Source: Chitinivibrionales bacterium (GTDB lineage Bacteria > Fibrobacterota > Chitinivibrionia > Chitinivibrionales > WJKA01). Taken from it: a stretch of 64,000 bases of DNA. The position numbers and the translations under genes were made by a program. A model generated the notes under the pieces. The model saw only the letters and a program-made list of their open reading frames with translations, did not search any database and was not told where the DNA came from. The DNA is taken from assembly GCA_038247415.1 (NCBI GenBank), contig JBBRUX010000007.1, forward strand, positions 32,001 through 96,000. Direction: 5' to 3'. The stretch's first letter is position 1. Every line of letters begins with the position of its first letter. This document shows, in pieces, positions 37,440 to 49,811 of the stretch.

Positions 37440-38783
37440 ATGCATAAAACAAAAACCAATCCTGAACCTAGCAGCATCTACGACCCCATTCTCGACTCGA
37501 TTGCCGATGGTGTATTTACCGTTGACAAGGATTGGAATGTTACAACCTTCAACAGAGCTGCGGAGCAGATCACAGGAACGCAGCGAATCGATGCAATTGG
37601 ACGCAAGTGTTGGGAAGTATTTCATGCCGATGTTTGCGAGCGGGATTGCCTGCTTAAGAAAACGCTCAAAACCAATCGCCAATGTGTCAACAAAACGGTA
37701 CATATCGTCAATAAACAGGGATCGACGATACCCATCAGTATTTCAACTGCAATTCTAAAGGATTCAACGGGCAACGTGATCGGTGGGGTCGAGACTTTTC
37801 GCGATCTCAGTGAAATTGAAGAACTGCGCAAAGAAGTCCTTGGTAAATTTACGTATGCCGACATTATCACCCGTGACCATCGGCTTCTTGATCTGTTCAA
37901 CACGCTTCCCGTGATCGCCCGGAGCGAATCTCCCGTCCTGATTCTGGGAGAAAGTGGCACCGGCAAAGAACTGCTTGCAAAAGCGATCCATAATCAGAGC
38001 GGCAGGGGCAAAGAGCCTTTTATTGCAGTCAACTGCGGAGCGCTGCCGGAAAATCTTCTTGAATCCGAGCTATTTGGCTACAAAAAAGGCGCATTTACAG
38101 ATGCAAAAGTCGACAAGCCCGGACGGTTTGAACGTGCAAAGAATGGCTCCCTGTTTCTTGACGAAATCGGCGATATGCCCAAGAGTGTCCAGGTGAAGTT
38201 GTTGCGGGTGCTTCAGGAGAAGGTGTACGAACCGCTGGGGGCCACTGAGTCTGTCAAATCCGAGGCCCGCATTATCGCGGCGACCAACCGCAACCTCGAG
38301 CAGATGGTCGAGTCGGGAGAATTTCGGCAGGATCTGTATTACCGGATACATGTGATCCCCATAACCCTTCCTCCGTTACGTGACAGACAGACTGATATAC
38401 CGCTTTTGGTCGATCATTTTCTTGCGCACTTCAATAGGGTGCATGGAAGATCCATCGAGCGACTCTCCGCCGATGCGATGAGCGTTGTGCTTGCACACCG
38501 GTATCCCGGCAACATCAGGGAACTGGAAAACATTTTGCAGCATGCATTTATATTGTGTCAAGGAAGCGTTATTGAGCGGAAACACCTTCCCGTGTATCTT
38601 TTTGCGCCCGCAAAACCCATGCAGGCTTCGAAGGATGAACGGTCAATCGAAGCGTTTGACAAGCGTAGAATCGAGGAGTCGCTTGTCGAAAATAAATTCA
38701 ACAGGACTGAGACTGCCCGTGAACTCGGGATACACGTCGCTACGCTGTGGCGGAAGATGAAGAAATATGGAATTCGGGTATGA
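37440..38783 (+). CDS. PAS sigma54-dependent activator, OrpR-like
   Basis: PAS with C-x8-C-x3-C, GESGTGKE, GAFTDA, C-terminal HTH. Confidence 0.9.
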   Translation: MHKTKTNPEPSSIYDPILDSIADGVFTVDKDWNVTTFNRAAEQITGTQRIDAIGRKCWEVFHADVCERDCLLKKTLKTNRQCVNKTVHIVNKQGSTIPISISTAILKDSTGNVIGGVETFRDLSEIEELRKEVLGKFTYADIITRDHRLLDLFNTLPVIARSESPVLILGESGTGKELLAKAIHNQSGRGKEPFIAVNCGALPENLLESELFGYKKGAFTDAKVDKPGRFERAKNGSLFLDEIGDMPKSVQVKLLRVLQEKVYEPLGATESVKSEARIIAATNRNLEQMVESGEFRQDLYYRIHVIPITLPPLRDRQTDIPLLVDHFLAHFNRVHGRSIERLSADAMSVVLAHRYPGNIRELENILQHAFILCQGSVIERKHLPVYLFAPAKPMQASKDERSIEAFDKRRIEESLVENKFNRTETARELGIHVATLWRKMKKYGIRV

Positions 38784-41470: not shown

Positions 41471-41750
41471 TATTTGAGGCTCATTCAAAATTCGTTGCGG
41501 CGGGATAAATTTACGCCCATTTTGCTCTGCCGTCCTCTGCTGACGGGCTCTTCCGGCCACACCACTTTCTAGAAAATAACTGTTGTGATGCCTAAAATCA
41601 ACGAAAAAGGCAGAGGAGCATGAGCCTAAGCGCTGCGTATTTGCGATGTATGGAAAATAGGAAATGCAGAAGTTCATCTGCTTAAAAAACATTCAAATTG
41701 ATTGAAGGTGTGCTGAGTTGAACATCTGATATTTACAAGCTCGAGGCTAT

Positions 41751-41765
41751 TGCAAATAAATTGCA
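41751..41765. promoter_or_regulatory. Candidate Zur box
   Basis: TGCAA-ATAAA-TTGCA palindrome 45 bp before the fur-family gene heading a Zn uptake operon. Confidence 0.65.
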
Positions 41766-41810
41766 TTAGCAACTCAGCAGCAATTATTTTATTATGCAGG
41801 AGAATTTCTT

Positions 41811-42257
41811 ATGACTGCCGATCCGAATTTCATAGAAAACCACCTTTCAATTTTACGAAATCAAGGCTGCAGGATTACCCCTATTGTAACTGCGGTTCTC
41901 AATCATTTATGCGGGAATCACAAGGTTCGGACTGCAAGTGAGCTTCAGCTTGAAATCAGTAGCAGTCTGGGTTATGAAGTGGGTAGTCCCACGGTATACA
42001 GAATTTGCGAACGATTGGCTAAAAGCGGCGTGCTTTGCTCAATGCACAGCTCAGACGGAATCATGCGTTATTTTATCTGTGGCAATCCCGGCAATGTCAA
42101 CCATCTGCATTTTATTTGTACTCGGTGCAAAGAAGTTCAAGAAGTTGAATGCCGTATCAATGAGCAAATAACAGCCCATGTCAAATCGAAATTAGGAGCA
42201 GTAGTGTCGGCTAATTTTGTTCAGGTTGAAGGGTTGTGTGAAGAGTGCAATGCATGA
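41811..42257 (+). CDS. zur: Fur-family regulator, probably Zur
   Basis: PTVYR, HLHFICTRC, GLCEEC; genomic context. Confidence 0.8.
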   Translation: MTADPNFIENHLSILRNQGCRITPIVTAVLNHLCGNHKVRTASELQLEISSSLGYEVGSPTVYRICERLAKSGVLCSMHSSDGIMRYFICGNPGNVNHLHFICTRCKEVQEVECRINEQITAHVKSKLGAVVSANFVQVEGLCEECNA

Positions 42258-42529
42258 AAAAACACATAAATAGTATCGCAAAAATAGGGCTGGCCTTTTA
42301 TCTGGCTCTTCTATTTGCAATAGTAATGCCCAATCACCACCACCAGGACAATACAGAACACGCTGATTGCGTGGTTTGCATAATCGCCAATCAACCTGCG
42401 CTGGTTGCCATAGCCATTGCTCTGGCCATTATAGTTAGTCTCCTTATCATCAGATTTGTTCTTCCTGTAACAATTTTTTTCTGCCAAACCCCCGTTTCGT
42501 TTCAATCCCGCGCGCCGCCACTTCTGTAA
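42254..42529 (+). CDS. DUF2946-like leader peptide with HHH, CxxC and C-terminal RAPP
   Basis: MPNHHHQDNTEHADCVVC...QSRAPPLL; ATGA overlap with zur stop. Confidence 0.8.
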   Translation: MKKHINSIAKIGLAFYLALLFAIVMPNHHHQDNTEHADCVVCIIANQPALVAIAIALAIIVSLLIIRFVLPVTIFFCQTPVSFQSRAPPLL

Positions 42530-42616
42530 GTTTTCAATCTATGATTCCTAATGCAGTGCCGCCTTTCTTCGAGGAGAGCGCGACGTTTCTATCTATTTAC
42601 ATAGTGGAGGATTGAT

Positions 42617-43681
42617 ATGTTTTCAAAATATTTGAACGTACTTGCTATTTTAATATTCATGTGTCAATTGTTGCCGTTTGAGGTCAAGGCTGGTGTAACA
42701 AATCCGGATCTTTCCGCAATCGGTCAGGTTATTGGAACGTATACAAATGATACCTTTGTCGAAGCGCACGATAAATTCGCACTCACACTCGGCGAAGCCG
42801 AAATTGTTCTCGATGCGTCACTCAATCCCTATTTCAATGGCGCATTCGTGCTTTCTATTGGCGAGGAAGGTATTGAAGTCGAAGAGGCGTATGCTTCAAT
42901 GATTCGGGGACTTCCATTAAACCTTGCTCTTAAAGCGGGTAAATATCGTTTGAATTTCGGCAAACTTAATCAGGTACATCCGCACGCATATCCATTCCTC
43001 CGGGCGCCACGGATACTTGCTCCTGATGGTGCAAAGCTCTTACCCGGCGAAGAAAGTTTCAATGACATTGCAGTTGAGGCATCTGCGTTGATTCCGGTTG
43101 TTGGGAGCTGGGCAACCATATTGTCAGCGGATTTCCTCGGAGGTGGATCGTTTCACCCCGAAGAACCAGCGATCGCTCAAGGATGGCTTGCGCATGTGTC
43201 AAATACATTCAGTATTGATCCGGCGAATTTCGATATTGGCGCATCGGCTACCCAGGGTATAAACAATGCTGCCGCAAAAACTCAGACGACGGTGATCGGT
43301 CTCGATGCAAAAGCAAAAATAGCGGTGACACCTGCCTATTCGTTGACTTTTGGAAGTGAGTATCTCTACAAGCTGGCGGAGATCGCGGATACTGCGGGTG
43401 TTAAAAGCCGAGATGATCGCTACGGGGTTTACGCATATGTCAACAACCAGTTTTTTACCCGGTATAATGTCGGAGTCCTTTACGAACAGTATCAGAATCC
43501 CGATGATCGCAACGTGATCGATCGGTCGATCAAACCGTTCGTGGGATTCGCTGTGCTTGAGGAAAGTACTCTGCTGAGGGCTTCCTACGAATACTTTATT
43601 GCAGGTAATGCTCAGAAGACAAGTACCGTTGAAGTGCAACTGCTGTTCAGCATGGGTCCCCATAAAGCGCACCATTTTTAA
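42617..43681 (+). CDS. Zinc-regulated outer-membrane porin-like protein
   Basis: NPDLS, VEEAY, FGKLNQVHPH, C-terminal GPHKAHHF. Confidence 0.75.
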   Translation: MFSKYLNVLAILIFMCQLLPFEVKAGVTNPDLSAIGQVIGTYTNDTFVEAHDKFALTLGEAEIVLDASLNPYFNGAFVLSIGEEGIEVEEAYASMIRGLPLNLALKAGKYRLNFGKLNQVHPHAYPFLRAPRILAPDGAKLLPGEESFNDIAVEASALIPVVGSWATILSADFLGGGSFHPEEPAIAQGWLAHVSNTFSIDPANFDIGASATQGINNAAAKTQTTVIGLDAKAKIAVTPAYSLTFGSEYLYKLAEIADTAGVKSRDDRYGVYAYVNNQFFTRYNVGVLYEQYQNPDDRNVIDRSIKPFVGFAVLEESTLLRASYEYFIAGNAQKTSTVEVQLLFSMGPHKAHHF

Positions 43682-43705: not shown

Positions 43706-44605
43706 ATGAAATCATTTTCAAGAAACGTATGGTCACGTGCTATCGGGGCTTTGCTTCTGATCGTTTCGAGCGGCAGTGCCGCGATTCGTGTCGTTGCAGC
43801 AACACCCGATCTCGGATCGATTGCGGCATACATTGGGGCTGACAAAGTGGAGGTTTCGTCGATTGCCAAGGCAAACTCCAACCCGCACTCTGTTGAAGTA
43901 TTCCCCTCATTCATGGCGAAAGTATCTCAGGCCGCTATCTACCTCAAATCTGGTTTGGGGCTTGATCAGTGGTCCGATGCTATAATCGACGGTTCCCGAA
44001 ACAATAAACTGCGAGTCGTTGATTGCGCAAACGGTGTTGCTGTTCTTGAGAAGCCGACCAAAGTTGACGCATCCATGGGCGATGTTCATCCATTTGGCAA
44101 TCCACATTACTGGCTCGATCCGCGAAACGGCATTATTGCCGGTCAGAATATCCTCGGTGCGCTGAAGTCCGCAGACCCTTCCAATGCATCCCTTTACGAA
44201 AGTAATTTCGCAACATTTAAAACAGAATGCGAAAGAAAATTTTCAGGATGGCAAACGACCATGAAACCACTCGCAGGCAGAAAAATCATTACCTACCATT
44301 CCTCATGGGCCTATTTTGCCAATGCATTTCAGTTATCTATTATCGAGCATATTGAACCGTTCCCCGGCATTCCTCCTACGGGAAATCATCTTGCTCAACT
44401 TGTCGATGTAATCAAAAAGGAGAATGTCGCATTAATTCTTCAAGAACCTTACTTTCCGGATGATGCTCCGAAATTTCTGAATCGTCAAACAGGTATCAAA
44501 ATATTCAAGTGCGCTCCATCCTGCTCTGATGTTAAACCTTCGGCGTATCTAATGCATTTTAACGAAATTATTAGTCAACTATCGACCGTTGCCGGAGACA
44601 AATAA
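43706..44605 (+). CDS. Metal ABC substrate-binding protein
   Basis: NPHSVE, GDVHPFGNPHYWLDP, YHSSW. Confidence 0.9.
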   Translation: MKSFSRNVWSRAIGALLLIVSSGSAAIRVVAATPDLGSIAAYIGADKVEVSSIAKANSNPHSVEVFPSFMAKVSQAAIYLKSGLGLDQWSDAIIDGSRNNKLRVVDCANGVAVLEKPTKVDASMGDVHPFGNPHYWLDPRNGIIAGQNILGALKSADPSNASLYESNFATFKTECERKFSGWQTTMKPLAGRKIITYHSSWAYFANAFQLSIIEHIEPFPGIPPTGNHLAQLVDVIKKENVALILQEPYFPDDAPKFLNRQTGIKIFKCAPSCSDVKPSAYLMHFNEIISQLSTVAGDK

Positions 44606-44606
44606 A

Positions 44607-45449
44607 ATGATGCTGTTCCACTACTCATTCATGCTGCCTGCGCTTGTTGTCTGCCTTATTTTGGCCGGGATTCATACCTATTTCGGGTATCATATCGTGC
44701 GTCGAGGGGTTATCTTTGTTGATCTCTCGTTATCACAAATCGCAGCCCTTGGCGCATGCGTTGCCCTGCTGCTGGGATGGGGAGAAAACGATCCAGGCAA
44801 AGCGTTTGTTATGAGTTTGGCCTTTACTTTTGGTGGTGCAGTCCTATTCGCATTACTGAGAAGAAGTCAGAAAATTGTTCCAATGGAAGCGCTCATCGGT
44901 ATTGCCTACGCCGGAGCGATTGCCGTATCGCTGCTTTTGTTGGAAAAATCAGCAACCGGAACGGAACATATCAAGGAGATGTTGGTGGGAACCATTCTCA
45001 CGGTTTCTTGGTATGATGTCATCCAGCTTGGTGCGATTGTTCTGGTTGTAGGGATAATTCATGCCGTGTTCTTTAAACGATTTCTTCATTTATCGGAAAA
45101 TGCTGATTCTACCGGCAAAGGGCAAGCGGGAATCCTGTTGTGGGACATTATCTTTTATGCGACCTTCGGCATTGTCGTGACGTCATCTGTCAAGATTGCC
45201 GGTGTTGTGCTCATTTTTTCTTTGCTGACTATCCCGGCGGTTACGGCCATGATCTGCAGCGCAGGTACGATTCGGCGTATTGTATTGGGTTGGATTTTTG
45301 GTCTTGCTGGATGCATGCTTGGATTAGAACTTTCCCTCCGGATTGACTCTGCGGCAGGGCCATCGATCATCACGACGTTGCTGGCGATAATGCTGCTGGT
45401 CGCCGCTATCAGTCCAATGATGAGAAGAATTCGGGCTGGGGGTAAATGA
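44607..45449 (+). CDS. Metal ABC permease (ABC-3)
   Basis: GYHIVRRGVIFVDLSLSQ, EALIG, GVVLIFSLL. Confidence 0.9.
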   Translation: MMLFHYSFMLPALVVCLILAGIHTYFGYHIVRRGVIFVDLSLSQIAALGACVALLLGWGENDPGKAFVMSLAFTFGGAVLFALLRRSQKIVPMEALIGIAYAGAIAVSLLLLEKSATGTEHIKEMLVGTILTVSWYDVIQLGAIVLVVGIIHAVFFKRFLHLSENADSTGKGQAGILLWDIIFYATFGIVVTSSVKIAGVVLIFSLLTIPAVTAMICSAGTIRRIVLGWIFGLAGCMLGLELSLRIDSAAGPSIITTLLAIMLLVAAISPMMRRIRAGGK

Positions 45450-45500: not shown

Positions 45501-46379
45501 ATGAATCGGATTTTTCGTTTCGGGTTGCTCGTAATGACTATTGCCGCAGCACTATGGGCAAATGATGCAGCAAAACAAAATGATCGCATTATCCTTGCCT
45601 CGTTTTATCCTATGTACATCACTACTCTCAACGTAGCGCAGGGCGTGCCTGGTGTCAATGTTGTCAATATGACAAAACCGCAAACCGGTTGTCTGCATGA
45701 TTATCAAGTGACGCCTCAGGATATGAAGACAATTTCCACTGCATGGGCATTTGTTGCAAATGGCGCAGGCATGGAATCGTTCATTGACAAAGCTGTTAAG
45801 CAGTCACCACAGCTGAACGTCATTGATGCGAGTAAAGGAATCGAGTTGATAAAAGGTGATGGTGAAGAAGGGGATAATCCGCATGTATGGGTATCAGTCT
45901 CGTCGGCAATTGACCAGGTAAAAAATGTGGCAGAGGGATTGTCGGTAATTGATACTGCAAATGCCGCAAAATACCGTGTCAACGCCGACGTCTATATTGT
46001 CAGGTTGCAAGAGCTCCGGAAGAAAATGCATGAAGGTCTCGCGAGTATCTCTTCTCGCGACATTATCACTTTTCACGAGGCTTTTCCCTATTTCGCGAAA
46101 GAGTTCAATCTTACTATCGTAGCGGTAATTGAGCGTGAGCCCGGTTCCGAACCGAGCGCAGGAGAACTTGCCGAAACAGTAAAGATTGTCAAATCGCATA
46201 AGGTTAAAGCCCTCTTTGCAGAACCGCAATATCCTGCAAAGGCGGCACAGACCATTGCGCGCGAGACAGGCGCAAAGCTCCATGTCCTTGATCCGGCAGT
46301 GACAGGTTCTGCCACGCCCGACGCTTACATCCGGATAATGGAATCGAATCTTGCTGTGCTGCAGGAAGCCCTGAAATAG
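45501..46379 (+). CDS. znuA: Zinc ABC substrate-binding protein
   Basis: SFYPMY, GCLHDYQ, NPHVW, FHEAFPYF. Confidence 0.85.
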   Translation: MNRIFRFGLLVMTIAAALWANDAAKQNDRIILASFYPMYITTLNVAQGVPGVNVVNMTKPQTGCLHDYQVTPQDMKTISTAWAFVANGAGMESFIDKAVKQSPQLNVIDASKGIELIKGDGEEGDNPHVWVSVSSAIDQVKNVAEGLSVIDTANAAKYRVNADVYIVRLQELRKKMHEGLASISSRDIITFHEAFPYFAKEFNLTIVAVIEREPGSEPSAGELAETVKIVKSHKVKALFAEPQYPAKAAQTIARETGAKLHVLDPAVTGSATPDAYIRIMESNLAVLQEALK

Positions 46380-46386
46380 AGGTTTA

Positions 46387-47208
46387 ATGATGAAAGACAA
46401 TAATCAAAATGCCAACCCTGGTCTCGTGTGCGGCGCATGCTGCACTCGTCTTGAAAACGTCGGGGTATCATTTGGAAAGAATGAGGTGCTTAAGGGGATT
46501 AATCTGCATATCCACTGCGGGCAACTCGCGGCGATCATTGGGCCAAATGGCGCGGGAAAAACAACGTTGTTCCGAGCTATCCTTGGCGAAATTCCATACA
46601 CCGGAACTATCCACAATGAATTGTCTGATGTTAAAAGCATGCGTAAATTGACGATGGGGTATGTGCCGCAGCGGCTGGATTTCGATGCATCGTCCCCGGT
46701 GTCGGTACTCGACCTGTTTTCGGCATCACTCTCATCCCGTCCTGTCTGGTTGGGCCATAGTTCAATTGTAAAAAACCAGGCAATTCACGCTTTGGAAAGT
46801 GTAGATGCAAAACACCTTATTCATGCCCGGCTGGGGACTCTTTCCGGTGGGCAACTTCAACGGGTGCTTCTTGCCCTGGCACTTACGCCAATTCCAGACC
46901 TGTTGCTGCTGGATGAGCCGGTTTCGGGCGTTGACCCGTCGGGCATAGAACTGTTCTATCGCATGGTGTCGGAACTCAGGCGAACCTATCATCTGGCAGT
47001 GCTCCTTATTTCACACGACTGCGCAATCGCCGGCCGCTATGCAGACCGAATGCTTTTTCTTAATCAAGCAGTACTCTGCGACGGGAAGCCAGCAGATGTT
47101 CTACGCAACGATATCGTTGTGAAGACATTTGGATCGATTGCAGTAACGGATCTTCCACGAACTAACGAGCCGTCTCCTGTCTGCGATATAACTGGCAAGG
47201 AGGTATAA
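46387..47208 (+). CDS. znuC: Zinc ABC ATP-binding protein
   Basis: GPNGAGKT, GYVPQ, LSGGQ, LLDEP. Confidence 0.9.
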   Translation: MMKDNNQNANPGLVCGACCTRLENVGVSFGKNEVLKGINLHIHCGQLAAIIGPNGAGKTTLFRAILGEIPYTGTIHNELSDVKSMRKLTMGYVPQRLDFDASSPVSVLDLFSASLSSRPVWLGHSSIVKNQAIHALESVDAKHLIHARLGTLSGGQLQRVLLALALTPIPDLLLLDEPVSGVDPSGIELFYRMVSELRRTYHLAVLLISHDCAIAGRYADRMLFLNQAVLCDGKPADVLRNDIVVKTFGSIAVTDLPRTNEPSPVCDITGKEV

Positions 47209-47210
47209 GC

Positions 47211-48050
47211 ATGCTGGTATGGACATCGCTGGTGTCGACGCTTCCCTTTGAGTGGGCACAATTCGGATTTATGCAAAACGCATTGCTGGCTGTGCTTATT
47301 GTTACACCACTTTTCGCATTCCTTGGTTGCATGGTTATCAACAATCAGATGGCATTCTTCTCGGATGCGATCGGGCATTCCGCGCTTACCGGTATAGCGA
47401 TTGGAGTGATTGTTGGTCTTGCCAACCCTCTTTGGGCAATGGCGCTGTTTGCTTTACTGCTTGCGGTAGGAATCACCATTCTACGCCGCTACAGTGCCGC
47501 ATCAAGTGATACGGTAATCGGGATTGTCATGTCCTTCACTGTTGCGCTGGGTATTGTCATTTTGTCTCGTGGCGGCGGTTTCAACCGGTATTCGAGATAT
47601 TTAATTGGAGACCTTCTCAGCATCACACCCGCTGAAATCGTTATGCTGTGTATCGTTACTGTTGTTTTCCTGACTATTTGGGTAACCCTGTTTAACCGGA
47701 TATTTCTCGTCTCTATCAATACGTCACTTGCACGCAGCAGAAAAATACCTGTCTGGATTACCCAGGGGTTGTTCGCATCGATCACTGCACTCATAGTTAC
47801 CCTGAGCATTCAATGGGTTGGAATCCTTGTGATAAACGCACTCATCATTCTCCCTGCAACTGCGTCGCGCAATGTGGCGAAATCCATGAAGGAATATCTC
47901 TGGTTTTCCGCGCTTATAAGCGTGATCGCGGGTGTTTCAGGGCTGATAGCATCGTACTATATGTCAACAGCCACCGGCGCTACGATAGTACTCTTTTCAA
48001 TGATATTCTACGTATGCTCCCTTATTGGCGGAAAGATACGGGGAAGATAG
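47211..48050 (+). CDS. znuB: Zinc ABC permease
   Basis: FMQNALL, FFSDAIGHSAL, YLIGD, VGILVINALII. Confidence 0.9.
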   Translation: MLVWTSLVSTLPFEWAQFGFMQNALLAVLIVTPLFAFLGCMVINNQMAFFSDAIGHSALTGIAIGVIVGLANPLWAMALFALLLAVGITILRRYSAASSDTVIGIVMSFTVALGIVILSRGGGFNRYSRYLIGDLLSITPAEIVMLCIVTVVFLTIWVTLFNRIFLVSINTSLARSRKIPVWITQGLFASITALIVTLSIQWVGILVINALIILPATASRNVAKSMKEYLWFSALISVIAGVSGLIASYYMSTATGATIVLFSMIFYVCSLIGGKIRGR

Positions 48051-48051
48051 G

Positions 48052-49053
48052 ATGCAAACGACCCTCAATGACCTAACCGTTCTTTTTCTCAGCATTCTGC
48101 TGGAGGCGCTCCCTTTTGTGCTACTTGGTTCTGTAATCGCTGCGGCCATCGGGATGTTCGTCTCAGAGAACCTTTTGTACAGGTTGATCCCGAAGAACCG
48201 GTTGGCGGGTCTGGTTGTCGTTTCTTTTATGGGTATCGCGTTTCCAGTGTGCGACTGCACCGTTATTCCCATCATGCGACGGCTGATCCGCAAAGGACTG
48301 CCGCCGTCCCTCGCAATAGCGTTCATGTGCAGTGTACCTATTGTAAATCCAGTAGTCATCGCCTCAACGTATTGGGCTTTTGCAGGTCAGCCGCATATAG
48401 TCTGGCTTCGCATGATAGTGGGATTGAGTACTGCAATCGCGGCTGGATTCATAGTGAGCAAAGTGACTCGCGATGTAAACCCGCTTCTTGATGAAGCACA
48501 CACAAAAATGCCGCAACACACCTGTTCGTGCGGTGAAGCGCATCATGACCACGCACACGTGCATGCAGGATGTGCATGTGGCAGCCATCATCATGACTCT
48601 ATTCATAAAAAGGCCGAAGAAACACGCTGGAATAGCCTATCCAATAAAGTGCATGGTTTCCTGGCCCATGTGACCAACGAGTTTATTGACAGCGCATCGC
48701 TCATCGTTATCGGTGCCTTTCTGTCAGCGGCGATCCAAATGCTCGTTCCCCGCACAATCATGTATCCGGTGGCCGCATCGCCGGTTGCCTCGGTTGCATC
48801 AATGATGGGATTTACCTGGTTGATTTCTCTTTGCGCAAACGCAGACGCATTTGTGGCAAAATCATTTTATGGACTTTTCACCACTGGTGCGGTAATAGCG
48901 TTTATGACATTCGGACAAATGATTGATTTGAAAAACACCATGGTAATGTTAGGTTTTTTCAAGAAAAGATTCATTGTCACCACCGTCATCATTATCAGCA
49001 TTCTATGCTTGATGTGGGGTGTCACCATCAATCTTTTAGGGAGGGGCGCATGA
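48052..49053 (+). CDS. DUF318 permease (YcgR-like) with His/Cys-rich loop
   Basis: LEALPF, PVCDC, HTCSCGEAHHDHAHVHAGCACGSHHH, SLCANADAF. Confidence 0.85.
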   Translation: MQTTLNDLTVLFLSILLEALPFVLLGSVIAAAIGMFVSENLLYRLIPKNRLAGLVVVSFMGIAFPVCDCTVIPIMRRLIRKGLPPSLAIAFMCSVPIVNPVVIASTYWAFAGQPHIVWLRMIVGLSTAIAAGFIVSKVTRDVNPLLDEAHTKMPQHTCSCGEAHHDHAHVHAGCACGSHHHDSIHKKAEETRWNSLSNKVHGFLAHVTNEFIDSASLIVIGAFLSAAIQMLVPRTIMYPVAASPVASVASMMGFTWLISLCANADAFVAKSFYGLFTTGAVIAFMTFGQMIDLKNTMVMLGFFKKRFIVTTVIIISILCLMWGVTINLLGRGA

Positions 49054-49811
49054 ACTTCAGCGAATTCAATAAGCATGCGCGGCTTCTGACTCTCGCATGC
49101 GTGTGCGTTGCATTATATGCGGTAATAAACTCGGGCAAGATTCTCCTGTTCCTGCATCCACGATCACTGCTGCTTATAAAAATCGGATGGATCGTTCTTG
49201 TCGCCTTGACCCTTAATGAATTGAAAACATTCCTGGGGCAAAACAGCAGAATAAAATTGGATTGGCGCTATTTCGCTCTCATGTTTCCGATTCTTGCAGT
49301 GCTGTATGTGAACCCGACTGGCCTTTCTTCTCGGATAGCCGTACAGAAGGGCGTTTCGTCCATGGCATTGACAGCAAATCGCAACACGCCACTTCCCCAA
49401 TGTCTTGTTAGAGATACTGCTGGGCCTGTTGCTTATACGATAAAAGATGATTCAATGTACGCGCAACTTGACCGTCTATATGCCGATCCTGTAAAGCATG
49501 TCGGAGAAATAATTACGATGTTAGGGTTTGTCGCACCTGATACAATCCTTGGGAGAAAGAGCTTCTTTCTTGCCCGAATGATGGTTGCTTGTTGCGCTGC
49601 CGATGGCATGCCCATAGGCTTTTATTGTGCTACCGATTCGACGATTGGAATCCATGAAAATGACTGGGTTATTTTGACAGGAAAGCTGGAAACCCGCTCG
49701 GTAAAGTTTCCCTGGAATACAGACAAAAAAACAATCCCGTTGCTTAAGATGATATCAGTGAAGAAAGCAACCAAACCACAAAATGAATATGTTTATCCGG
49801 TGGCGTATTGA
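49050..49811 (+). CDS. TIGR03943/DUF1980 (YcgQ-like) protein
   Basis: FLHPR, ARMMVACCAADG, DWVILTG. Confidence 0.85.
   Translation: MNFSEFNKHARLLTLACVCVALYAVINSGKILLFLHPRSLLLIKIGWIVLVALTLNELKTFLGQNSRIKLDWRYFALMFPILAVLYVNPTGLSSRIAVQKGVSSMALTANRNTPLPQCLVRDTAGPVAYTIKDDSMYAQLDRLYADPVKHVGEIITMLGFVAPDTILGRKSFFLARMMVACCAADGMPIGFYCATDSTIGIHENDWVILTGKLETRSVKFPWNTDKKTIPLLKMISVKKATKPQNEYVYPVAY

Follow-up and report, generated by a model that had tools for sequence, protein, structure and literature searches.

Analysis of a 64,000-nucleotide (nt) stretch of a Chitinivibrionales bacterium genome (GenBank assembly GCA_038247415.1, contig JBBRUX010000007.1, positions 32,001 to 96,000; referred to below as the window, whose own numbering is used throughout) revealed a small open reading frame (ORF) that probably encodes a metal-sensing arrest leader peptide of a metal import operon. 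The leader ORF (42254 to 42529; 91 amino acids) was read from the sequence and the list of ORFs and, like all genes of the window described here, lies on the forward strand. It is the second gene of the operon, after a gene for a Fur-family regulator (41811 to 42257; 148 amino acids), and its start overlaps the stop of that gene, since the ATG at 42254 and the TGA of the regulator ORF together form ATGA at 42254 to 42257. Downstream of the leader, an 87-nt spacer leads to the gene for a predicted outer-membrane beta-barrel protein ("porin"; 42617 to 43681; 354 amino acids with a C-terminal Phe), whose Shine-Dalgarno (SD) sequence AGTGGAGG is followed by 6 nt and the ATG at 42617 (SD, spacer and ATG at 42603 to 42619). 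The genes that follow encode ZnuA-like binding protein 1 (43706 to 44605; PF01297, 164 bits), ABC-3 permease 1 (44589 to 45449; PF00950), ZnuA-like binding protein 2 (45501 to 46379; PF01297, 235 bits), a ZnuC-like ABC ATPase (46387 to 47208) and ABC-3 permease 2 (47211 to 48050), the last two assigned by profile matches.

The leader peptide starts with MKKHINSIAK and contains two hydrophobic segments, as determined by Kyte-Doolittle hydropathy in 19-residue windows. The first segment (residues 7 to 25; 42272 to 42328; 2.17) follows a Lys-rich N-terminus. It is succeeded by PNHHHQDNTEHADCVVC, which carries the putative metal-binding motif HHH-x5-H-x2-CVVC (residues 28 to 42; 42335 to 42379) with HHH at 28 to 30, H36 and CVVC at 39 to 42. 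The second segment (residues 48 to 76; 42395 to 42481; hydropathy peak of about 3.0 over residues 48 to 70) lies within a 43-residue spacer between the Cys pair and the C-terminal motif, and the peptide ends with CQTPVSFQSRAPPLL. The C-terminus reads SRAPPLL and is followed by the stop codon TAA (42527 to 42529). The RAPP codons CGC GCG CCG CCA (residues 86 to 89; 42509 to 42520) are the predicted stall site. An earlier note, made from the same sequence, had listed the ATGA overlap, the two hydrophobic stretches, the His/Cys motif and the SRAPPLL ending, and all of these were found by sequence and hydropathy.

An exhaustive HMMER search for homologues of the leader in 1.84 billion representatives identified 96 cluster representatives at E<=1e-3 and 11 at E<=1e-10. 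A word-indexed protein search with the leader returned one relative only. Alignment of 69 homologues revealed seven invariant residues, H28, H30, C39, C42, R86, P88, and P89, and H36 was kept in at least 90% of them. The spacing between CxxC and RxPP was 43 residues in 40 of 52 loci, the window included, and 42 to 45 residues in 51 of 52; the sole outlier was a frameshifted copy. The peptides ended in RAPP (43/52), RGPP (8/52) or RSPP (1/52), with a tail of 1 to 13 residues before the stop codon. By hydropathy, 85 of 89 leader representatives have an N-terminal hydrophobic segment, and 65 of the 89 have a second. Judged from this conservation at the sequence level, the 91-residue ORF is a real conserved gene, far beyond chance. 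One member of the family is annotated merely as a hypothetical protein.

Comparison of the leader with PF11162 (DUF2946), the family of the CruR and CutF leaders, gave 16.9 bits (E 0.011, profile positions 51 to 117) and 15.6 bits in a genome search. The aligned portion is the C-terminal half of the profile, which carries CxxC and RAPP. Among the 69 aligned homologues, 47 matched PF11162 at E<=0.1, with a best value of 2.5e-6. The hallmarks of DUF2946-type leaders are present: CxxC, a C-terminal RAPP, fixed spacing, an N-terminal hydrophobic segment and a position in a metal-homeostasis operon. By these sequence features, the leader is a divergent, sub-threshold relative of DUF2946 (CruR/CutF) rather than a formal member, distinguished by its ligand set and by its spacing mode, which is two residues shorter than the CruR-type value of 45. 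The earlier assignment to RAPP leaders of the CruR/CutF type thus gained the backing of a conserved family of 96 representatives that show these hallmarks.

A paralogous cassette of leader, barrel, ZnuA-like and permease genes was found in the same genome on contig C61 (locus L025; leader at 540 to 826). There the leader is split by a frameshift into ORFs at 540 to 746 and 683 to 826. In a contig from sediment run X1, 19 nt are inserted after position 707 of this locus; by arithmetic, this insertion joins the two frames into a single ORF in which CxxC and RAPP are exactly 43 residues apart. Run X2 matches the frameshifted form. The intact and split forms represent either a strain polymorphism or an assembly variant.

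The genomic context of the leader was analyzed in two sets of loci. A leader homologue at E<1e-5 was present in 15 of 61 genomes of the same order. At the 19 order-level loci, a ZnuA gene lay at most three genes downstream in 10 cases and a TonB-dependent receptor gene with ExbB/ExbD/TonB came next in 5; the other 4 had different neighbours or were cut. The second set was gathered with the alignment of the barrel protein, not of the leader, as the query and comprised 49 related loci from metagenome-assembled genomes labelled Fibrobacterota, Chitinivibrionales, Elusimicrobiota and a few other phyla. The leader stood directly 5' of the barrel gene in 37 of these 49 loci, and in 4 of the 12 misses fewer than 50 nt of sequence precede the barrel gene. 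The genes for the barrel, binding protein 1 and permease 1 were consecutive in 46 of 49 loci, and the remaining 3 contigs are cut. The cassette itself includes no ATPase gene; in the window, it is immediately followed by a full second ZnuA/ZnuC/ZnuB set. This synteny bears out the earlier claim that the leader heads a metal import operon. A conserved order of zur, leader and porin genes had also been put forward as a check: the pairing of leader and barrel gene recurred, whereas a Fur-family gene directly before the leader was found besides the window in locus L051 only.

The 354-amino-acid barrel protein had no Pfam match and only a weak match to the LbtU porin (20.6 bits, cut-off 90). Its AlphaFold2 model, of low confidence (pLDDT 53.7), contains an N-terminal helix and 15 strands, which is consistent with an outer-membrane barrel. 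Motifs with His, NQxHPHAYPF and, at the C-terminus, GPHKAHxF, are invariant in the barrel family and could be sites of metal contact.

Searching the Protein Data Bank (PDB) with binding protein 1 revealed Synechocystis ZnuA (2ov1/1pq4) as the best match, with an E value of 4e-29. The alignment pairs NPHS with DPHT, NPHYW with DPHIW and TYHSSWAYF with VFHPSWAYF, so that His occupies all three aligned positions, which in Synechocystis ZnuA are presumably the metal ligands. In Mn/Fe-type binding proteins, the third ligand position is occupied by Glu; it is His in both binding proteins of the window. Binding protein 1 (299 amino acids) has no His-rich insertion like the loop of classical ZnuA and aligned best with the loop-deleted construct 2ov1. 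The NCBIfam models AztC and MntC gave close scores for the two proteins (107 versus 87 and 140 versus 128 bits). Because the binding protein keeps three His ligands as in Synechocystis ZnuA, zinc is likely to be the metal of the importer and of the leader; this makes the earlier designation as a zinc system a likely one. At residues 268 to 276, approximately (44470 to 44500), the LDPL of Synechocystis ZnuA corresponds to CAPSC in binding protein 1 and to YAPSC in the C61 paralogue; CAPSC may provide an extra thiol near the metal site.

The 148-amino-acid regulator matched PF01475 with 48.7 bits and has CxxC pairs at residues 103 to 106 and 143 to 146, corresponding to the structural Cys4 site of the Fur fold. 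It is the only PF01475 match in this 96%-complete genome. The NCBIfam models for Fur, Zur and PerR gave 56.2, 42.7 and 41.3 bits, all far under the cut-offs, and Fur, Zur and PerR structures in the PDB all scored 31 to 42 bits. The gene had been named zur in the earlier note; membership in the Fur family holds, while the Zur type did not emerge from these scores, and the label "Zur" can be applied to this sequence only as a conjecture. The Fur protein of L051 is 61% identical to that of the window, and the ATGA overlap with the leader recurs there, which agrees with the proposed coupling of the leader to the regulator gene. In L042/L029 the order is Fur, Nramp, leader, and L086 has a divergent Fur gene.

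Upstream of the regulator gene, an operator-like palindrome, TATTGCAA-N5-TTGCATTA (41748 to 41768), has 11 of the 12 arm bases of TTGCAA-N5-TTGCAA. It touches, and lies just 5' of, the -35-like hexamer of a sigma-70-like promoter candidate (41766 to 41795, forward strand; TTAGCA, an 18-nt spacer and TATTAT), a pattern match with 9 of 12 consensus positions. L051 has a perfect 12/12 palindrome, TTATTGCAA-N5-TTGCAATAA, ahead of its Fur gene. Not one of the remaining 50 loci reached 11/12, none of 50 shuffles reached the observed scores, and the best box at the C61 paralogous cassette was 8/12. A genome-wide search for the palindrome revealed no clear regulon, with five sites at 13/14, the genes beside the other four of which were not examined. 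Co-transcription and autoregulation by the Fur-family protein are plausible in this lineage on the strength of these sequence elements.

To the RNA, the earlier note had ascribed a hairpin over the porin SD, formed by the string TTTCTATCTATTTACATAGTGGAGG at 42586 to 42610. This string does fold into a hairpin that includes the SD, with only -4.0 kcal/mol, and as the main switch it was rejected as too weak and was treated as a minor element. A longer pairing is more stable. In the minimum free energy fold, the last codons of the leader (42498 to 42531), which are complementary to the ribosome-binding region of the porin gene, pair with the SD/ATG region. The duplex of 42498 to 42531 with 42593 to 42622 has -19.7 kcal/mol, a value that was reached by 0.6% of 1000 shuffles and that was the best of 34 windows. 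The SD itself has a duplex score of -10.3 and an opening cost of 10.2 to 11.7 kcal/mol. The C61 paralogous locus has the same layout of pairing between leader 3' end and ribosome-binding site (RBS), in different letters. Across 19 loci, the stall region was the best partner of the RBS in 8, the window among them. The barrel-gene RBS is unusually structured, with an opening cost of 10.5 versus 4.6 kcal/mol for the next gene and a higher cost in 29 of 30 loci. When a ribosome was modelled at RxPP, the RBS cost fell by at least 2 kcal/mol in 15 of 52 loci, compared with 2 of 52 when a control footprint was placed 40 nt upstream. The significance of this effect (Wilcoxon p = 4e-5) is overstated, the loci being related.

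The codon for the first Pro of RxPP was CCU in 35, CCG in 15 and CCC in 2 of 52 loci, although CCU accounts for 13% of the Pro codons in the downstream ORFs, and the codon for the second Pro was close to background. CCU followed by CCN spells CCUCC, an anti-SD sequence. A preference of this kind points to synonymous-site selection across phyla and so speaks for pairing of the stall-site codons themselves with an SD; alternatively, the codon could influence arrest through a specific tRNA. The Ala codon of RxPP is often GCU (19/52). At the TonB-receptor loci L021, L027, L032, L033 and L035, the spacers contain four complementary elements: the codons of RAPP (CCUCCC), GGGAG as a decoy, CCCUCCCGGG as an anti-SD and CUCGGGAGG as the SD. 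This layout resembles a classical attenuator.

For comparison with characterized systems, papers on arrest leaders were used (PMC9426467, PMC9973294, PMC12992588, PMC7897499, PMC10951233, PMC4571824, and bioRxiv 10.1101/2025.02.05.636593). The closest uptake-type relative is CruR (Bp2923) of Bordetella pertussis, whose family of more than 2000 members has CxxC and RAPP at a spacing of 45 +/- 1 to 2 residues that is required for function (PMC9426467). In CruR, downstream expression is lost when RAPP is mutated, and mutation of CxxC eliminates the response to copper (PMC9426467). CruR arrests in the PURE system. As an arrest motif, RGPP is at least as effective, and RSPP is partly permissive (PMC12992588). 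Like CruR, the window leader is a small ORF with an N-terminal export or transmembrane signal, CxxC, a fixed spacer (45 residues in CruR, 43 here) and a C-terminal RAPP, and it precedes an outer-membrane uptake protein; members of its family also precede TonB-dependent receptors, in the 5 of 19 order-level loci mentioned above. Unlike CruR, which has CxxC alone, it has the metal site HxH-x5-H-x2-CxxC and a second hydrophobic segment in the spacer, and it precedes a barrel and a ZnuA-type importer instead of copper genes. The intergenic spacer is AT-rich and 87 nt long here, whereas CruR has a GC-rich 162-nt region with a rut site (PMC9426467). The leader of the window also overlaps a Fur-family gene and scores under the Pfam cut-off, and SD masking is not reported for CruR.

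In CutF of Rhodobacter capsulatus, stalling was proposed to open a stem-loop in which the cutO SD is hidden (PMC9973294; bioRxiv 10.1101/2025.02.05.636593). The window leader resembles CutF in this proposed melting of RNA over the next SD and in having metal-binding Cys residues 5' of a Pro-rich arrest site. It differs in that CutF has CxxxC and PPP, depends on EF-P, was proposed to sense periplasmic copper and induces a detoxifying oxidase at high copper, whereas the window has RAPP and an uptake operon, for which the sign of regulation would probably be opposite. ApdA/ApdP and SecM (PMC7897499, PMC10951233, PMC12992588) monitor Sec/YidC and are without a metal site; here, metal importers lie downstream. 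A precedent for a force mechanism is the synthetic fusion of the ADR1a zinc finger to SecM, in which zinc-dependent folding of the Cys2His2 finger releases the arrest (PMC4571824). That fusion is artificial, and its release peaks at 24 to 26 residues, not 43. The 43-residue spacer would need compaction, for example as a helix, for the site to lie in the vestibule at a comparable depth. The locus also resembles the Caulobacter Zur regulon (PMC4176598), in which a Fur-family repressor goes together with Zur-repressed znuABC, ZnuA-type importers and outer-membrane zinc receptors. Such Zur regulons are transcriptional only, whereas in the window an ATGA overlap joins the repressor gene to the predicted arrest leader, plausibly on the same transcript.

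In the literature examined, metal-sensing arrest leaders have so far been tested only for copper (CruR, CutF). The contexts given in the literature for CruR, CutF-like proteins and RAPP/RGPP upstream ORFs are copper, nickel/cobalt, TonB and Sec. The words "zinc", "ZnuA" and "porin" were absent from the main texts on these three groups, a search that did not cover the supplementary neighbour tables of PMC9973294. Literature searches combining arrest peptides with zinc or ZnuA retrieved nothing relevant. This agrees with the earlier statement that no zinc example had been characterized, within the same limit as to those tables. By its different ligand set and strictly fixed spacer, the locus represents, at the sequence level, a separate and deeply conserved branch.

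Family conservation, fixed spacing, synteny, codon bias and RNA complementarity were computed here; we infer that arrest occurs, that it depends on metal, which metal this is and in which direction regulation goes. We think it reasonably probable that the leader is a regulatory arrest leader of the CruR/CutF kind that senses metal for a zinc-type import operon. Translation of the leader would begin at the stop codon of the Fur-family gene. By analogy with PMC10951233 and PMC12992588, the ribosome would arrest at R86-A87-P88-P89, its P site occupied by Pro88 and its A site by Pro89. A ribosome with codon 88 in the P site would cover about 42501 to 42531. In this position, residues 48 to 76 would be inside the tunnel, and the metal site (residues 28 to 42), 46 to 60 residues from the peptidyl-transferase centre, would lie at or just outside the tunnel exit and not yet across the membrane. 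The earlier proposal that the nascent peptide senses metal in the envelope found no support; with the 43-residue spacing, the site would be near the tunnel exit when the ribosome stalls.

Metal occupancy of the HxH...H..CxxC site would set the duration of the arrest. The stalled ribosome would cover the 3' end of the leader, which is otherwise predicted to pair with the SD region of the barrel gene, and the arrest would favour translation of the barrel gene and, via coupling or polarity, expression of the ZnuA-type importer. Because the operon is an uptake system, the sign is most likely that of CruR: low metal would give a long arrest and an active operon, and bound metal would give release and an inactive operon. 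The opposite, CutF-like sign is possible. Zn(II) is the most likely metal. Via the palindrome at 41748 to 41768, the Fur-family repressor probably controls its own gene and the rest of the transcript, which would add a transcriptional tier.

Several observations weigh against the arrest leader of a zinc-type operon as set out above. The 16.9 bits of the window leader are below the PF11162 gathering cut-off of 23.7. The relatives' loci are kin, and their counts therefore overstate independence. In the window, the first Pro codon of RAPP (42515 to 42517) is CCG, not CCU. The fold of 42490 to 42640 is ordinary compared with shuffles (z = -0.74). With a ribosome at RAPP, the predicted opening cost of the SD drops by little (10.2 to 9.0 kcal/mol; in a longer context, 11.7 to 9.9 kcal/mol), since a second element, UCAAUCU (42534 to 42540), and the local hairpin can mask the SD again. 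A clean two-state thermodynamic switch in the window was rejected on this account, as the SD stays masked (9 to 10 kcal/mol) with the ribosome at RAPP or at the stop codon. Synonymous recoding gave p = 0.083 for the pairing of stall site and RBS in the window, and among 19 loci only L025 (0.013) and L026 (0.010) were below 0.05, which suggests that most of the complementarity follows from the amino acid sequence. The Fur, Zur and PerR models score the regulator alike, so that it is not typable by sequence. Finally, an Nramp gene lies beside the leader in L029 and L034 and a CbiM gene lies nearby in L027, which points to manganese or to cobalt/nickel at these loci.

The last two points bear on the question of whether the regulatory logic is right and the metal is instead manganese, iron, cobalt, nickel or copper, with the Fur-family protein being Fur or Mur and not Zur. 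We take this to be a serious possibility, though not the expected case. The zinc-type His at the third ligand position of both binding proteins and the zinc ZnuA as the best solved match argue against it. A mixed His3Cys2 site is typical of zinc, which also counts against another metal. In its favour, the regulator is the sole Fur-family gene of the genome and has its best NCBIfam score to Fur, the AztC and MntC scores of the binding proteins are close, and Nramp and CbiM genes occur in the neighbourhoods just named. The characterized relatives sense copper, and His-only CutF-like clusters are linked to nickel/cobalt genes (PMC9973294). Another output of the same arrest leader is conceivable and, though on the whole unlikely, deserves attention: the stalled ribosome would block Rho in the 87-nt spacer and its release would permit termination before the barrel gene, with SD masking being secondary. 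Such a mechanism was shown for CruR (PMC9426467), the small thermodynamic unmasking predicted in the window would fit it, and many relatives have long spacers of 130 to 300 nt. The CCU bias at the P site, the complementarity of stall site and SD and the unusually structured RBS of the barrel gene point to RNA pairing instead. The Rho-dependent and SD-masking outputs are compatible with each other.

A conserved metal site lies between the two hydrophobic segments and would face the periplasm, and the peptide is always co-located with a transporter; both points would suit a two-helix membrane protein acting as an accessory or metallochaperone of the transporter, with RAPP merely slowing translation for insertion. 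This is improbable. Of 89 representatives, 24 lack the second segment, whereas RxPP and its spacing are near-invariant, and the leader is found ahead of TonB-dependent receptors as well. Few tetrapeptides are avoided as strongly in bacterial proteomes as RAPP and RGPP, and small upstream ORFs show an enrichment of these two at their C-termini (PMC12992588). CruR and CutF were undetectable as proteins (PMC9426467, PMC9973294). A chance ORF or an annotation artefact, for which the Pfam score below the threshold could be quoted, is next to impossible; it is refuted by 96 homologous clusters and 52 syntenic loci from several phyla with invariant motifs.

Taken one step further, the arrest leader may be read as a natural force sensor made of a zinc finger and an arrest sequence, a tentative picture whose parts are doubtful in combination. 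The His3Cys2 site would fold on zinc at the tunnel exit and pull the ribosome from its arrest, the mostly hydrophobic 43-residue spacer would probably be helical inside the tunnel, and the CCUCC prolines would mask the next SD, so that one position of the ribosome would read both the peptide signal and the RNA switch. With its start fused to the stop of the Fur repressor gene, the leader would form a coupled two-tier zinc circuit, widespread in Fibrobacterota, Elusimicrobiota and neighbouring phyla.

The family is of interest for its obligatory linkage to the barrel/ZnuA-like/permease cassette in poorly studied phyla. If the proposed function is correct, post-transcriptional sensing by a nascent chain would extend to zinc-type uptake, and the 43-residue spacing together with the CCU bias would offer a clean natural system for ligand control of RAPP arrest at the tunnel exit. 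The locus would then also be a case of a repressor gene physically coupled to a translational sensor, and a recurrent family of small ORFs would receive an annotation.

Two further genes lie at the end of the operon. They encode an ArsP_1-family permease (48025 to 49053; PF03773) and a putative TIGR03943/DUF1980 permease subunit (49005 to 49811; profile matches) and overlap by 49 nt (48025 to 49811 in all). An ArsP_1 gene is located near a leader in L028 too. Literature on DUF1980/TIGR03943/COG3689 yielded nothing informative. On the same strand, 3 kb 5' of the locus, a gene for a sigma-54-type enhancer-binding protein with a PAS-like N-terminus was found at 37440 to 38783.

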